Part shown: one piece after another, positions 2,898 to 62,841 of the stretch
Layout: every line of letters starts with the position of its first letter
Position numbering within the stretch: position 1 is the stretch's first letter
NCBI GenBank assembly: GCA_951406725.2
Contig: CATOCA020000016.1
Coordinates: forward strand, 1 to 64,000
Reading direction: 5' to 3'
From: Octopus vulgaris
Lineage: Eukaryota
DNA: 64,000 nt
The notes under the pieces: generated by a model
What the model was told of the DNA's origin: nothing
What the model saw: the letters and a program-made list of their open reading frames with translations, nothing else
Databases searched by the model: none
Position numbers and translations under genes: made by a program

Positions 2898-3526
2898 CGT
2901 TGACGATGATGATGAGGTTGATGATGATGATGATTATGATGATGATGATGATGATGGTAATAATATTAATAATAATGACGTGAAACGGAATTTAGTTACT
3001 AAAATCATAAATTCTTTTACCAATTAGACCGTTATTTTGAACTGCATAAAATGTTACAACGTTTTACTTGCAGCAATAACCATAAAATTGATAATTTCGA
3101 TTTCTTTTCATGTAACACATGACCATGTAGTTTTTTTTCTCTATTTTTATTTTATTTTTATTTTTGTTTTTGTTTAGGAGTGGCAAGTGGGAAGGTTTGA
3201 CGCACATACATTTGTCAAGGACGTTATTATTAGGACGATGGAAGGGCAGAATTAGTAACGCGTCAGATAACATGACTTGCAGTATTTAGATACATGCCTT
3301 GACATTCTTAGTTCAAACCTTAACGCTGGAGCCGAATAAATTAATACCATTGAAATACTGGTGTCGATTGAATAGACTATGCCCATGCGCCGAAATTAAT
3401 GATGGTGTGTCTAGGCATGAAATCGGTATTAGGGTAAGTTGTTTTCCGTTTGGACATCCATAATCCAAACCAAACCGCGGTTTCAGCTAACCGTAAGTTA
3501 CACATGCATAAACACGGGCGCACATA

Positions 3527-3562
<36 letters not shown>

Positions 3563-3622
3563 TATCTTTATATATTTATATACATATCTTTATATATTTA
3601 TAGTAATATATATATATATCTT

Positions 3623-3678
<56 letters not shown>

Positions 3679-3913
3679 AAAAAATGGGATAAAATCTTAA
3701 TAAAGAAATTATCAAGTAGTTAGCGTGAAAAACCTCATAAGAGAAAAAATCTGTAAATTTTTTCACTTGAAAATATTTATTTATATTATATAGAGGGCAT
3801 TATTACACATAAATGCCGCACGCTAGGAGGGACTTTTAAAGTCATAACTACCAAATATAAACAAATCGTACCGAATGCAATTCTCGAAGCGAGTCATTTA
3901 AAAACAGAATTTA

Positions 3914-3977
3914 GCTCCAGATCACCTGTGATTTCGCAATCAACGCAGTATCCGCGTCCCTTGCTCTTCAGAGAAGC
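3914..3977 (-). ncRNA. Type I hammerhead ribozyme (antisense copy)
   Basis: Reverse complement of 4288-4351 with one stem I substitution next to the core. Confidence 0.75.
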
Positions 3978-4287
3978 GAACTCAAGATATATCATGAATG
4001 AACAAAATCAACATACCAGATAGACAACCGTCGCCTCCATCGTAGCTTATAGAACTGTTCACCCCTCATACATCTATGTAAATGGCGGGCTTGACAATTT
4101 CTTATTAAGATTTTATTCTATTTTTTAAATTTGTTCCGAAGAAGCACATTGTTACCGAAATGCAATTCGAAAAAGCCCGCCATTTACATAGATGTATGAG
4201 GGGTGAACAGTTCCATATGCTACGATGGAGGCGACGGTTGTCTATCTGGTATGTTGATTTTGTTCATTCATGATATATCTTGAGTTC

Positions 4288-4351
4288 GCTTCACTGAAGA
4301 GCAAGGGACGCGGATACTGCGTTGATTGCGAAATCACAGGTGATCTGGAGC
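4288..4351 (+). ncRNA. Type I hammerhead ribozyme
   Basis: gcttca-CTGAAGA-gcaa(gggacgcggatactgcgttga)ttgc-GAAA-tcacaggtga-TC-tggagc; canonical core, all three stems pair; predicted cleavage after 4345. Confidence 0.88.
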
Positions 4352-4747
4352 TAAATTCTGTTTTTAAATGACTCGCTTCGAGATTTGCATTCGGTAAGAT
4401 TTGTTTATATTTGGTAGTTATGACTTTAAGAATCCCTCCTAGCGTGCGACATTTATGTGTAATAATGCTCTGTATAAAATATAAATAAATATTTTCAAGT
4501 GAAAAAATTTACAGATTTTTTCTCTTATGAGGTTTTTCACGCTAACTACTTGATAATTTCTTATTAAGATTTTATCCTATTTTTTAAAATTTGCTCCGAA
4601 GAAGCACGTTGTTACCGAAATGCAATTCGAAAAAGCCCTCCATTTACATAGATGTATGAGGGGTGAACAGTTCCATATGCTACAACGGAGGCGACGGTTG
4701 TCTATCTGGTATGTTGATTTTGTTCATTCATGATATATCTTGAGTTC

Positions 4748-4811
4748 GCTTCACTGAAGAGCAAGGGACGCGGATACTGCGTTGATTGCGAAATCACAGG
4801 TGATCTGGAGC
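4748..4811 (+). ncRNA. Type I hammerhead ribozyme (second tandem copy)
   Basis: Identical to 4288-4351; predicted cleavage after 4805. Confidence 0.88.
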
Positions 4812-4919
4812 TAAATTCTGTTTTTAAATGACTCGCTTCGAGAATTGCATTCGGTACGATTTGTTTATATTTGGTAGAGTACCTCCTAGCGTGCGACATT
4901 TATGTGTAATAATGCCCTC

Positions 4920-4976
<57 letters not shown>

Positions 4977-5889: not shown

Positions 5890-8213
5890 CACTCAGTTCA
5901 CTTTTTGCATGGTTTTTAATAACACGGTCCAACAAAAAGAACCGATTATTTTTTTGCACTATTTTTTTTTTTACTTTAACACGGTTTAAACATCTGTCCT
6001 TGTGTGACCAACGAATTTATTGCAAGTGGCAAGTAAACAATTAAGTAACATCAATCGATTATAATTTATAAAACGCTGAAATTCTCCGTAACATGATTAA
6101 GTAACAATTTAGCGAAGTAAAATAGAATCCAATCTATATTTTCGGTATAGTGATCCTCCACTATCCGGTGTGGGCAGGACCTATACACTGTACATACCTC
6201 TGGCTGCGTGTAACCGCTCCATCAGACGGCGCGCGGGAGCAGTCGTTAGCATCGGGTGTAATACGAAAGACGTGTCGCAAGTTTCATCCTCTACTATATT
6301 TTTTATTTGCCATCGTGATAGTGATAACCTACCTCAAAATATCGGTTGATACATCTAAGAAAAATAAAAGAGCATCAATTTCTTTGGAGACCAAGATCAA
6401 TATTTTGGATCGTCTTCGTAAGGGCGAAAGTGCAGCGTCCTTGAGTAGAGCTTACTGCCTGAACGAAGCTACGATAAGAACGATCAAAAGGAATTGTGTT
6501 ACCATTAGAAGATCTGTAGCTTCTGCAACAAAATTATCTGCCAAGTCGTTGTCATATACAAGAGACATGATTCAAGAAAAAAGGAGAAAGCTTTAAATAG
6601 TATAGTTAGAAGAAAACAATCAACAAAGGATACCAGTAGATGGTAAAACCATAAAACAGATGGCATTACAATTTTACAAGAAGATTAATGATCTGGAGTA
6701 ATCAAGTGCGCTACAACTGTCATGTGACAAAAAGAAGAATGAATTTGCTGCAAGTACGGGATCTCTTACAAAATTCCTTGAAAGACACGCACTGCATAAT
6801 ATAAAATTGAGAGGTGAAATTTCATTGGTAGATAAACCTGTTGCTGAAGAATTTCTTCCAAAACTAGCCCAAATAATTGAAGAAGGCGGTTACATTTCGG
6901 GTCAAGTTTTCAACGCAGATGAAACTGGTCTCTTTTGGAAAAAAATGCCAAACAGAACTTCTATAGCAAAATCAGAGAAAAGTGCCTGCGGTTTTAAGAC
7001 AGCTAAACACCGCGAAACTTTCTTATGTAGCAACGCTTCAGGAGATTGTTTGTTAAAACCGTTATTAATTATTCGATCATTTCGTTTGCGTGCAATGAAA
7101 GGCGTAGACTTAAGTAAATTACCAGTTCATTAGAGAGCCAATAAAACATCATGGATGACAGCAGAATGATTTAACAATTGCTTCGTTCCTGAAGTAAAAT
7201 GGTATATGGAAGCTAAAGGTCTTCATTTTAAAGTCCTTTTACTTATAAACAATGCACCCGGTTATCAATATCTGGAACACTCGAATGAAAAGTATTGTTG
7301 CCACCTAATACAATATCGCTGATTCAACCGCTTGATCAGGGTATAATTTCAACATTCAAATCAGATTATATCTAGCGAAAGTTTGAATATATTATAGACG
7401 AATTACAAAAAGATGGTACACTTTTAATCATTCAAGCATGGAAAAAATTGACTATAATTAATGTGTTAAATATGCTGCCCTGGTTTTATCCAAATTAAAG
7501 CCATTCACCCTAAATGCATGTTGGAGATCACTTTGGCCAGAATGTGTAAAGCCTAAAAATCTCGTATCTAATATAAATACGAACGAATTACATTCTGATA
7601 TTATCACTTTGTCACATCAGATTGGCAGAGAAGGCTTTGAAGAATTAACAATTGAAGATATTACAGAATTAACGATTGACGAAGATCCTAATGAAGAACA
7701 AATTATAGAGAGTATTTCAGAGAATGTATATGATTCCATGTTTAGTTTATAGTAGTGATGATGAAAAAATGGTTCCACTATCTACATGTACAATTCTAAA
7801 AGGTCTCTAAATAGCCAATAAACTTGGAAATCATTTTCTTACAAATGATAGCAATGTCGAACGAGCTGTGTAATTACAACGTGATTTGAAAATGATTATG
7901 GCATGTTATGAAAAATCATATAAAGAACTAACAAGAATAAAATCACAACATCTGATAACCGGATTCATATACAAAACCAGTGAAACAAAAGAAACACAAG
8001 ATGATAATTTTATTCAAGATACACATGAAGATGTATCACCATTCAGTATTTCCAGTGACGAGAGTGATTTTGCACCACCTAAAAACAACAACAGAAAGCG
8101 GGCACGTTTTATGTCTAGTAGTGACAATGAATGACCGAACGATTATGTGTACACACACACACGCACACACAGACACACAGACACACACACAGACACACAG
8201 GCACACACACACA

Positions 8214-10171: not shown

Positions 10172-11254
10172 GTGTCGCGTTGCTCTCAGGCAACTCTGCC
10201 GTCCTGGGTCGACCTTAAGTGACTTCAACACAACCAAAGCATTCTATAGGGGTTTAGTGGAGGGGAGGTACGACGACGAGCTCGGGGCGAACCTGGACGT
10301 CGACGAGGAGTACCTGACCCGCCTGTTCAGGACGACTTTCGGGCCAGGGCCCATGGACAACTTCCAGAGATCCCTGGCCTGGCAGTGCTACCGAGAAGCG
10401 CTACCCGTTCGGGATAAGCTCTACAGACACGGCTCGAGAAACACGGGGCCGACCTGCCCGAGATGCGGTCAGAGCGACGAAACCGTTCTGCACGCACTCG
10501 TTCAGTGTCCAACAATTTCCGACCTGTGGGCTTATGTCGAACAACTGCTGTCACGTGTGGGACGAGTCGGTTTATCAGCTGAGTCTATCGTCAATATTGT
10601 CACGCCTCCTTCCTTCAAACGGGAAGGAAGAGCTATTTTCATCATCCTTGTGGCTATGGCGAAAGAATGTATCTGGTGGACGCGTCTGAAAGGTTTGGAG
10701 ACAAACACTATCCTCTCTGGTCAATCTCTCATCAACTTCTTCAAGTACCACTTGAAAAGGAAAGTGAGAGTAGAGAGGCAAGTTTTGTCTAGCGAATGTT
10801 TTAAAAAAAGATGGGTGAATGTAGCAAGAATGGCACGTATGAATGACGAAGCCACCTTGAGCATAGTCCTATGAACCCAGAAATCGAAAACAGAGAGTTG
10901 CTTATTTGAAAAAAAAAAAAAAAGAAATATAAAATGTGACATCATTGACCGAGGTTACCGTGGTCTTTTCCGTAGGCTTTTCTTTCCACGGGTAAACCTC
11001 ACCTGTCCTCCCCTTTACACTTCATATTGACATTTCTGTGATAACGATCCCTATTGATCAATTTTTTTTCCTCCCCCCTTTTTTTAAACCCCCTTTTTTT
11101 TGTCCTCTTTCTCTCCTCTTACGATCCCTTTTTATCGAAACTCCCCCTTCCTTTTTTTTTTTTTTTTTTTTTTTTTCTTAAACCTTCAAAAGAAAAGCTC
11201 TACCTTGTAATTTGTTCTATCTGTGTGCATCCCTGTGTGGCTAATAAAGAAACA
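10172..11254 (+). mobile_element. 3' end of Tx1/L1-group LINE inserted in (TATC)n
   Basis: ORF2 C-terminus, pyrimidine-rich 3' UTR, AATAAA at ~11243; (TCTA)n on both flanks. Confidence 0.85.
10257..10874 (+). pseudogene. LINE ORF2 C-terminal fragment with zf-RVT CCHC zinc knuckle
   Basis: LAWQCYREALPVRDKL...TCPRCGQSDETVLHALVQCP...W; AKECIWWTR. Confidence 0.85.
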
Positions 11255-28449: not shown

Positions 28450-28920
28450 TCCAACAACCAAATTGCAACTGACATCTACTACAAACCAACAGACTCAAAA
28501 CAATATCTCCTTTTCTGTTCATGCCATCCTAAACACACCAAAATAAATATCCCATTCAATCTAGCAAAAAGGATCTGTTCAATTGTATCTGGCACAACCA
28601 CTTGGGAATTTTGCCTACAAGACCTCAAAACAACACTCATTGAACGTCATTACCCACCCGCACTTATAGACCATGGAATCAAACGTGCCAAGAAAATGGA
28701 CACAAACACACTAAGGACAACAAAACACAACACCACACCTCACTTTAAATCACTCTCATACATATCTACCCACAACCCCAGAAACAATGAAGCATGCAAC
28801 ACAATTATACAAAATCTCCCTCTGCTCACCCAAGACCTGAAAATGAGCAACATCCTAAATACACAAACTCCTCAAATACTAAAAGCAACAACAGTCACTC
28901 AAAAGGCCCCTAAAAATGCA
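28450..28920 (+). pseudogene. Penelope-like RT C-terminal (thumb/linker) fragment
   Basis: TDIYYKPTDSKQYLLFCSCHPKHTKINIPFNLAKRICSIVS...LIERHYP, a typical PLE motif series. Confidence 0.85.
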
Positions 28921-28944
28921 AAATAATAATAATAATAGAACACC

Positions 28945-41322: not shown

Positions 41323-41720
41323 CGCACTTTCCCTCTACTTTTCCAACACCACCGTCCTCACAGGCACCCATCATCGTCCCTATCATGTCACCGACTCCTT
41401 TACTTGCACTTCTCGCAACGTCATTTACTGAATCTCCTGCTCTTTCTGTCCTTCTCTGTACATCGGTCAAACGAGACGCCGCTTAGCTGACCAGTTCGCG
41501 AAGCACCTCCGAGACGTCAGACTCAGCAATGACACCCCGGTCTCACGCCATTTCCGCTCTATCGGTCATTCACTACAACACCTGTCTGTGTTCGGATTAT
41601 CTTTGCACAGATTTAATCTATCTTCGCTCCTTTGCGCCACATGGGCTCACATCTCCTCCTCTCTTCATCTGACACCAACTTCCTCACTTCCTCTAACACC
41701 CACTTCCTCTCTTTACTCCT
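41323..41720 (+). pseudogene. Penelope-like GIY-YIG endonuclease fragment (same family as 24655-24900)
   Basis: DSFTCTSRNVIY*ISCSFCPSLYIGQTRRRLADQFAKHLRDVRLSNDTPVSRHFRSIGHSLQHLSVFGLSLH. Confidence 0.88.
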
Positions 41721-62253: not shown

Positions 62254-62841
62254 ATGTGTATCTAACTATCTACATATATACATACATATAAGTGGGATGA
62301 CCACTACGTGGACATCCATTATGCTAGAAGTAGTTCCGCTATGGTCTTACCACTTAGAAAGAAATGTTATCACGAAAATTTAGCAAATGCCAGAAAGTTA
62401 GCGAGCAAGACAAATGAAAAGAAACAAAATATAGAAATAATCATAAACTAATTTCGCTATTACCACTTACGCAAATTACTTACGTAATTGTCCGTAGCTC
62501 ATCAGTATGATCGTCATTGCAAATATAACTTGAAGAACTATACACGAGACTTCTGCATAAGATTGAACATGTATACAGTTCTACCAATTACACTTGGGGT
62601 TATCTTTCAAAAGTCATCGTTTTGGCGCGCTAAAATTCTGGAAATAATTATGGAGAAAACAATTCTCTGCAGTAAATTTTGCCGGTTAGAGAACATAGTT
62701 ATTTAAACTTAAATTTAAAATAATAAGGGTGAAAATTTGAATATTAATTTGATTAATATTAACTTAAAACTAGTGGTGTGGCATATTAAAATCTGAAGAT
62801 TCAGAAAAATTATATTACATACATATATACGTATATATCTG

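Follow-up and report, generated by a model that had tools for sequence, protein, structure and literature searches.

The hammerhead-bearing element described here is one insertion of a dispersed, old and non-coding repeat of several subfamilies, which carries at least 490 hammerhead ribozyme (HHR) cores in the 2.8-Gb, microsatellite-rich assembly of its animal host, Octopus vulgaris. It lies in a stretch of 64,000 nucleotides that was analysed as a whole (the window). Most probably we are dealing with a protein-free hammerhead repeat of ~460-495 nt, an animal non-LTR retrozyme, probably copied in trans into a TA microsatellite by a PLE RT-endonuclease. A non-autonomous passenger of PLEs is its most likely status because the rule that governs the ends of its insertions, one at a fixed site A and the other at a fixed site B, is common to the repeat and to two autonomous PLE families. 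We infer that PLEs mobilise the unit, that priming takes place on two strands and that the hammerheads cleave as dimers.

The insertion may be pictured as follows. A PLE RT-endonuclease would cut both DNA strands within (TA)n, and each cut end would prime reverse transcription at one fixed internal site of the RNA, A (~+135) or B (~+245 from the HHR cut). Each cDNA would then be extended around a head-to-tail template and be truncated, and the pair would be joined back to back, leaving a tandem arm that ends at A and a mirror arm that ends at B. As template, either a tandem transcript left uncleaved or a circle that the HHR had produced through cleavage and ligation might have served.

Architecture of the locus and its hammerheads

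A core search of the window places the hammerhead core CTGAAGA at +4294, +4754 and -3971. The two plus-strand ribozymes are the same sequence, and their cut-site C17 residues lie 460 nt apart (Table 1), just as a preliminary description of this DNA had stated. The hammerhead that it placed on the opposite strand has the core but fails the full descriptor, because A2.1->U costs it the innermost pair of stem I. The tandem unit it proposed is a real direct repeat (4090-4492 against 4549-4939, 13 nt being deleted from unit 2), although the plus arm amounts to 1.88 head-to-tail units rather than two; and while the HHRs are identical, the high identity claimed for the copies falls to 96-97% over whole units. 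TRF, run with the settings of the retrozyme preprint discussed below, missed the locus when calling tandem repeats.

The minus arm is 0.91 unit long and stands back to back with the plus arm. The inverted arms 3673-4092 and 4173-4592 (420 nt, 94-97% alike) are separated by an 80-nt loop, and the outer ends of both arms enter (TA)n, at 3524-3673 and 4920-4976, so that the flanks too are as first described. The element is without an ORF, again as reported at first: the only frames of at least 60 aa inside it measure 65-88 aa and are antisense to the HHR, and four PLE proteins found no match in it. A bacterial promoter scan, with a bacterial model applied to an animal host, gave results at chance level. 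Elsewhere in the window lie a broken Tigger/pogo-like DNA transposase (6126-7133, plus strand; CENP-B_N domain, weak DDE_1 match) and a LINE 3' fragment with a zf-RVT domain (10173-10874, plus strand).

Table 1. Features of the element and its flanks, in positions of the window
Feature	Position	Strand	Basis
Left (TA)n / (ATAC)n microsatellite, insertion target	3524..3672	no strand	sequence
Inverted 5'-truncated arm, 0.91 unit; 3' end at fixed site B (~+246 from predicted cut)	3673..4092	-	sequence
Third HHR, predicted cut after 3920; A2.1->U	3914..3977	-	sequence
Arm-arm junction, back to back, 3-nt overlap	4090..4092	no strand	gap -2 in locus mapping
Direct arm, 1.88 units; 3' end at fixed site A (~+135), exact base blurred by TA run (4919-4930)	4090..4930	+	
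HHR 1, type I, predicted cut after C4345	4288..4351	+	sequence
HHR 1, stem I	4288-4293/4346-4351		
HHR 1, core	4294-4300		
HHR 1, extended helix II	4301-4329		
HHR 1, GAAA	4330-4333		
HHR 1, near-palindromic helix III	4333-4344		
Predicted cut-to-cut monomer, 460 nt, 35% GC, 70% paired as circular fold	4346..4805	+	
A-to-B segment, ~110 nt, equivalent of the PLE 'tail'	4481..4591	+	
HHR 2, same sequence as HHR 1, predicted cut after C4805	4748..4811	+	
Right (TA)n microsatellite	4920..4976	no strand	sequence

Sequence, alignment and descriptor agree on a type I HHR with a full catalytic core, whose helix II is extended (4 bp, an internal loop and 7 bp more). The match is not due to chance, since the full descriptor yields 0.007 matches per locally shuffled 64-kb window (150 shuffles); the real window holds three, namely the two plus-strand HHRs and, on the minus strand at 62440-62515, a type I HHR-like motif that is unrelated to them, has a long helix II and has its core at -62505. 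The latter sits within a ~320-nt repeat between microsatellites, of which an 85% copy was found at another locus (L216). Rfam recognises no hammerhead, either at the gathering score over the whole window or at E<=10. The word 'canonical', used at first for these ribozymes, is thus true of the core and not of the loops, given the extended helix II and the blank in Rfam. Matches to miRNA families in Rfam were set aside as a mere reflection of the inverted repeat.

Covariation in the fold was measured in an alignment of 61 of 111 distinct HHRs, in which helix III is fixed by the search pattern. There, 91% of the cells of the HHR helices are paired, against 28-43% in slid controls, and 126 cells show double changes, against 46±5 after shuffling. 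Stricter measures of covariation do not rise above the shuffles (double-change pairs, 11 against 9.8, 133/500; pair types, 234/500). At the level of the family, the function of the hammerhead has likely been kept, as far as such patterns tell. In folding computations the 12-mer of helix III is unfolded by itself (0.0 kcal/mol) and reaches -11.2 kcal/mol when self-paired. Pairing of two HHRs through helix III, as first suggested, is therefore plausible on these energies, which fit the dimer model of metazoan HHRs in the portion of PMC4209133 drawn on here; the predicted HHR would cut best as a dimer held by helix III. Its active fold stands 5 kcal/mol above the minimum fold, and a separate fold likewise has a non-active minimum. 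Monomers are predicted to be 61-70% paired. The z-score of the window's unit is -2.26 as a linear molecule and, with 12 shuffles, -1.57 as a circular one, and those of ten other units range from -2.3 to -5.3; in a consensus fold of the unit, 19 of 84 pairs show a double change.

A dispersed family with two fixed ends

A DNA search for the repeat, in which 40 of 1799 candidates were scored, gave 45 matches. Two HHR patterns, with core and helix III fixed, found 431 and 59 exact matches, and a reversed-pattern control found none. The copies fall into at least four subfamilies, which resemble the window at 68-90% and are collinear with it across the whole unit, and the HHR-to-HHR period is 453-496 nt in 11 loci. 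We mapped 120 loci, 20 of them with ~5 kb on each side, 40 with ~4 kb upstream and the rest with ~1.5 kb; three duplicates were dropped for counts of ends (117 loci) and one further for counts of arms and divergence (116 loci). An arm of at least one unit, running on into the unit itself, is present in 43 of these 116, two same-strand HHRs in 11, and back-to-back arms, ~40 to 860 nt long, in 44. Long arrays are absent: the longest arm among the 117 loci measures 2.18 units. Contigs from four runs of guessed (RNA) library type correspond mostly to family variants over 4095-4900, and none spans it.

The copies end at two fixed sites ~110 nt apart, which we delimited after inspection of the data, with some TA overrun included, as site A (125-156 nt past the predicted cut) and site B (236-268 nt). 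Among 64 loci with a single arm, 41 end at A, 21 at B and 2 elsewhere. The 43 back-to-back loci behave otherwise: 36 combine A with B, none A with A, none B with B, and 7 have an unclassified end. Pairing of A with B in 36 of 36 classifiable loci has a binomial probability of 1.5e-11 against 0.5; two of these loci (L146 and L171) look like one event, which would leave 35 pairs, while 2 far pairs and 8 complex loci stand outside the count. TA-rich DNA adjoins 152 of 160 A or B ends, and target-site duplications are unreadable within (TA)n. The locus of the window obeys the rule, with B at its left and A at its right: the A-to-B segment is on the outer end of the left arm and is missing from that of the right arm.

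The same regularity appears in two PLE families of this genome. A family with a 711-aa ORF has one end of each kind in 8 of 8 pairs, with a tail of ~72 nt. A family with an 811-aa ORF has them in 11 of 12 pairs, one long end being partly deleted in that count, with a tail of ~33 nt; the exception (L260) combines two long ends. That PLE insertions comprise a tandem and an inverted 5'-truncated copy, with a tail of 30-40 bp often at one end only and a bias for (TA)n, is in print, and how such structures form is listed there as an open question (PMC8557442). Both strands are cut and extended by a PLE protein that is predicted to act as a dimer, and its starts fall at two internal sites of the RNA, which define the tail (PMC11167929); in the portion of that paper drawn on here there is no between-strand difference in start site, and HHR cleavage is dispensable in vitro. 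In view of the known one-ended tail and the two internal start sites, the strict one-of-each pairing puts a known PLE trait into quantitative form.

Template, age and alternative readings

What was copied may be read from the arms. Only 4 of 158 have their 5' end within 5 nt of the cut (~3.6 expected by arithmetic), and a cut site is crossed by 125 of the 158, counts that are biased in that most loci were found by their HHR. A linear cleaved monomer was rejected as the main template on these two grounds: 5' ends are not concentrated at the cut, and most arms cross it, which suggests a template either circular or uncleaved. The median divergence between tandem rounds within an arm is 4.2% (26 comparisons) and that between opposite arms 3.0% (37 comparisons), both close to the divergence from the nearest other locus. 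The idea of one monomer circle read twice gains no support here, since tandem rounds are no more alike than opposite arms; arms of one insertion are near-identical, and of the same subfamily in 36 of 37 comparisons. As far as DNA can tell, circular and uncleaved tandem templates would do equally well. Known retrozymes accumulate as circles (PMC7229834), and we lean, by a narrow margin, towards the family making circular RNA.

The insertion is not very recent. Its three copies at the locus differ by 2.9-3.9%, and it is present in a second copy of the region in the assembly, both at odds with the recent insertion that had been proposed. The window is a whole contig (C46; CATOCA020000016.1), reverse-collinear with G000:C1:173,395,000-173,457,400 at 94-98% identity over four sampled stretches of ~10 kb, and is for that reason probably the other, unpurged haplotype of the C1 region. 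The C1 copy has the same inverted arm and one 460-nt direct unit fewer, with a single direct HHR; its alleles are of the unit-1 type to ~4434 and continue with the end of unit 2, a pattern that fits the loss of one unit or a collapse of the assembly. Both direct units share one G->A change, at 4449 in the first and 4896 in the second, that neither the inverted arm nor any of 42 family reads has; the two arms may have had different templates, or there may have been conversion between units.

Compatible with the explanation that we prefer, though unlikely, is that the locus itself actively gives rise to a 460-nt circular RNA. Its two intact and identical HHRs, one period apart, have counterparts in only a few loci (the 11 of 116 above); the monomer is predicted to be self-paired, with the z-scores given above; and known retrozymes behave in this way (PMC7229834). 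Each unit, however, has its own departures from the family majority, as in a decaying copy, and the second assembly copy is one unit short. Variants private to the locus include 4384T, 4397A, 4449A and 4684A. A transcript entering from the left could, moreover, form a 420-bp hairpin over HHR 1, and only 1 of 9 Xenopus dimers cleaved itself in vitro (bioRxiv 10.64898/2026.07.22.740005). If transcribed, the two intact predicted HHRs could yield a monomer, but this copy is more likely a product than a source.

It is quite improbable that an autonomous PLE yet to be found has the unit as its pseudo-LTR, the copies being its 5'-truncated insertions. Layout, ends and target are as in autonomous PLEs; the loci read are ~120 of many hundred, ~60 of them with just 1.5 kb of flank; and at three loci the 5' end of the unit abuts PLE sequence (L040:5350, L134:1079-1091 and L157:1268). 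Against this, arms of more than one unit run into the unit and never into a common ORF end (the 43 loci above), and the period is held across subfamilies. As for the three junctions, they involve two PLE families, in differing orientations and at differing positions of the unit, and they may reflect either template switching or deletion at a common (TA)n target. A reading of them as chimeras is not favoured over the other: the best relative of the PLE fragment in L134 is only 83% alike, and deletion at a shared (TA)n explains the junctions equally well.

Copies were searched for with and without an adjacent PLE ORF, as had been proposed, and the arrangement of a parent element was seen in none of the 120 loci. 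Four PLE proteins match 10 of them, and in none does an ORF with RT and GIY-YIG have the unit as its terminal repeat; were every copy tied to a PLE ORF, it had been argued, the element would be an ordinary pLTR, and this is not what these loci contain. Three PLE families were also sampled from the side of the ORF, one old and decayed (30 loci), the young 711-aa family, with a small HHR of its own (20 loci, most of the family), and the young 811-aa family, in which RVT_1 scores above the cut-off and GIY-YIG weakly (35 loci). The unit is the terminal repeat of none of the three, and matches between them and the unit are limited to adjoining unit copies (L051, the same as L040, L232 and L251) and one match of 20 nt. 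No autonomous partner was found among the three families sampled, which counts against the passenger reading.

These families deserve a description of their own. The 711-aa ORF has no Pfam match, so that the PLE label leans on known motifs and on layout. It is young (L081-L094; e.g. L083:3022-5202, plus strand), with an intact ORF, (TA)n targets, an HHR ~1 kb past the stop and ~150 nt ahead of the start codon, and two 3' ends ~72 nt apart. The other PLE-like family (L260-L264; e.g. L261:3720-6152, plus strand) is very young: all 150 matches listed are 98-100% identical. Its RT/GIY-YIG frame is of 811 aa, and in full copies a frame of 495 aa lies upstream; the tail measures 33 nt, and a scan for canonical HHRs found none. 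Decayed fragments like the C-terminal part of the 811-aa protein lie in the window itself (28647-28923 and 41381-41482, plus strand).

Selection of the inverted arm as a source of dsRNA or small RNA is highly improbable. The ~420 bp of dsRNA proposed at first has a real basis in 420-bp arms, 94-97% complementary around an 80-nt loop, but arms back to back are widespread in the family, at the variable lengths given above, and in autonomous PLEs, and hence need no function. The inverted arm is best read as the footprint of a two-ended PLE insertion: judged from its sequence, the mirror arm is most likely an insertion scar and not an antisense device. That the dimer is a product of faulty assembly, or of a solo repeat duplicated locally in the DNA, is barely tenable: the collinear C1 copy with its single direct HHR and the variant 4449A, common to both plus units and missing from the family reads, speak for it, but units 1 and 2 are set apart by 12 substitutions and 3 gaps, both having private changes, the C1 alleles are patterned as by deletion or assembly collapse, and HHR-to-HHR dimers exist at ten other loci. 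Of the preliminary description, then, a retrozyme-like, ORF-free tandem element with HHRs stands, without its antisense or dsRNA reading and without its recency.

Place among known elements

With metazoan non-LTR retrozymes, as the cited portions of PMC7229834 and of the preprint (bioRxiv 10.64898/2026.07.22.740005) describe them, the octopus repeat shares an ORF-free head-to-tail unit with one type I HHR, a short near-palindromic helix III, a GC content below 50% (0.35 here), a degree of predicted self-pairing, and many dispersed copies in a genome that also holds PLEs; its type I core, two consecutive HHR units, lack of coding capacity, GC content and dispersal make it a likely member of that class. 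Its units of 453-496 nt exceed the 170-400 nt of PMC7229834 and are within the 51-972 bp of the preprint. It differs in having no long arrays, its cleavage and circles are predicted ones, and fixed two-site 3' ends with back-to-back arms are not described for metazoan non-LTR retrozymes in those portions of the sources. A plant LTR retrozyme, with a type III HHR in its LTRs, was ruled out by the type I topology and the head-to-tail units.

EN+ PLEs (PMC8557442, PMC4209133, PMC11167929, in the portions drawn on) have in common with it a partial tandem plus an inverted 5'-truncated copy, a one-ended tail, 3' ends at two sites downstream of the HHR, (TA)n targets and no visible target-site duplication. 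In contrast with them it has no RT/GIY-YIG ORF, its tail is ~110 nt long against 30-40 nt in print, and in its HHR, unlike the minimal type of EN+ PLEs, helix I is full at 6 bp and helix III measures 3-4 bp. Chlamydomonas MRC1-type non-autonomous PLEs likewise form pLTRs and are head-to-tail and non-coding; yet they generally resemble an autonomous family at their 3' end, when no matching family was found for the octopus repeat, and most of the MRC1 clade is without canonical HHRs, which the octopus repeat has (PMC8557442, in part). To oppose retrozyme and pLTR, as was done at first, is largely a false choice, since the preprint, in the portion cited, argues that animal retrozymes derive from PLEs and are non-autonomous.

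Literature searches on octopus hammerheads, cephalopod PLEs and inverted PLE copies with tails brought up no paper that treats this repeat family or its strict pairing, and the family may be filed in Repbase-type libraries; the words 'ribozyme' and 'hammerhead' do not occur in the main text of the octopus repeat paper PMC13282606. The kind of element is already in print, and the locus is an ordinary one, one of hundreds of copies of a parasite. The portions of the literature cited here leave open how PLEs form tandem and inverted insertions and whether animal retrozymes are moved by PLE proteins. A short ORF-free RNA with two sharp start sites and a strict one-of-each rule, in a genome with intact PLE ORFs, is a ready substrate for work in vitro.

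A bolder version, which we put forward tentatively and hold to be rather doubtful, is that a ~480-nt circle made by the ribozyme is a free passenger of PLE enzymes without a sequence-matched parent, and that the PLE dimer obligatorily primes one strand at A and the other at B, ~110 nt apart, rolling through the ligated HHR junction. Were this true, the strict A+B rule would record in the genome how an asymmetric, dimeric PLE insertion complex works, and would explain both the tandem and inverted structure of PLE insertions and their one-ended tail.
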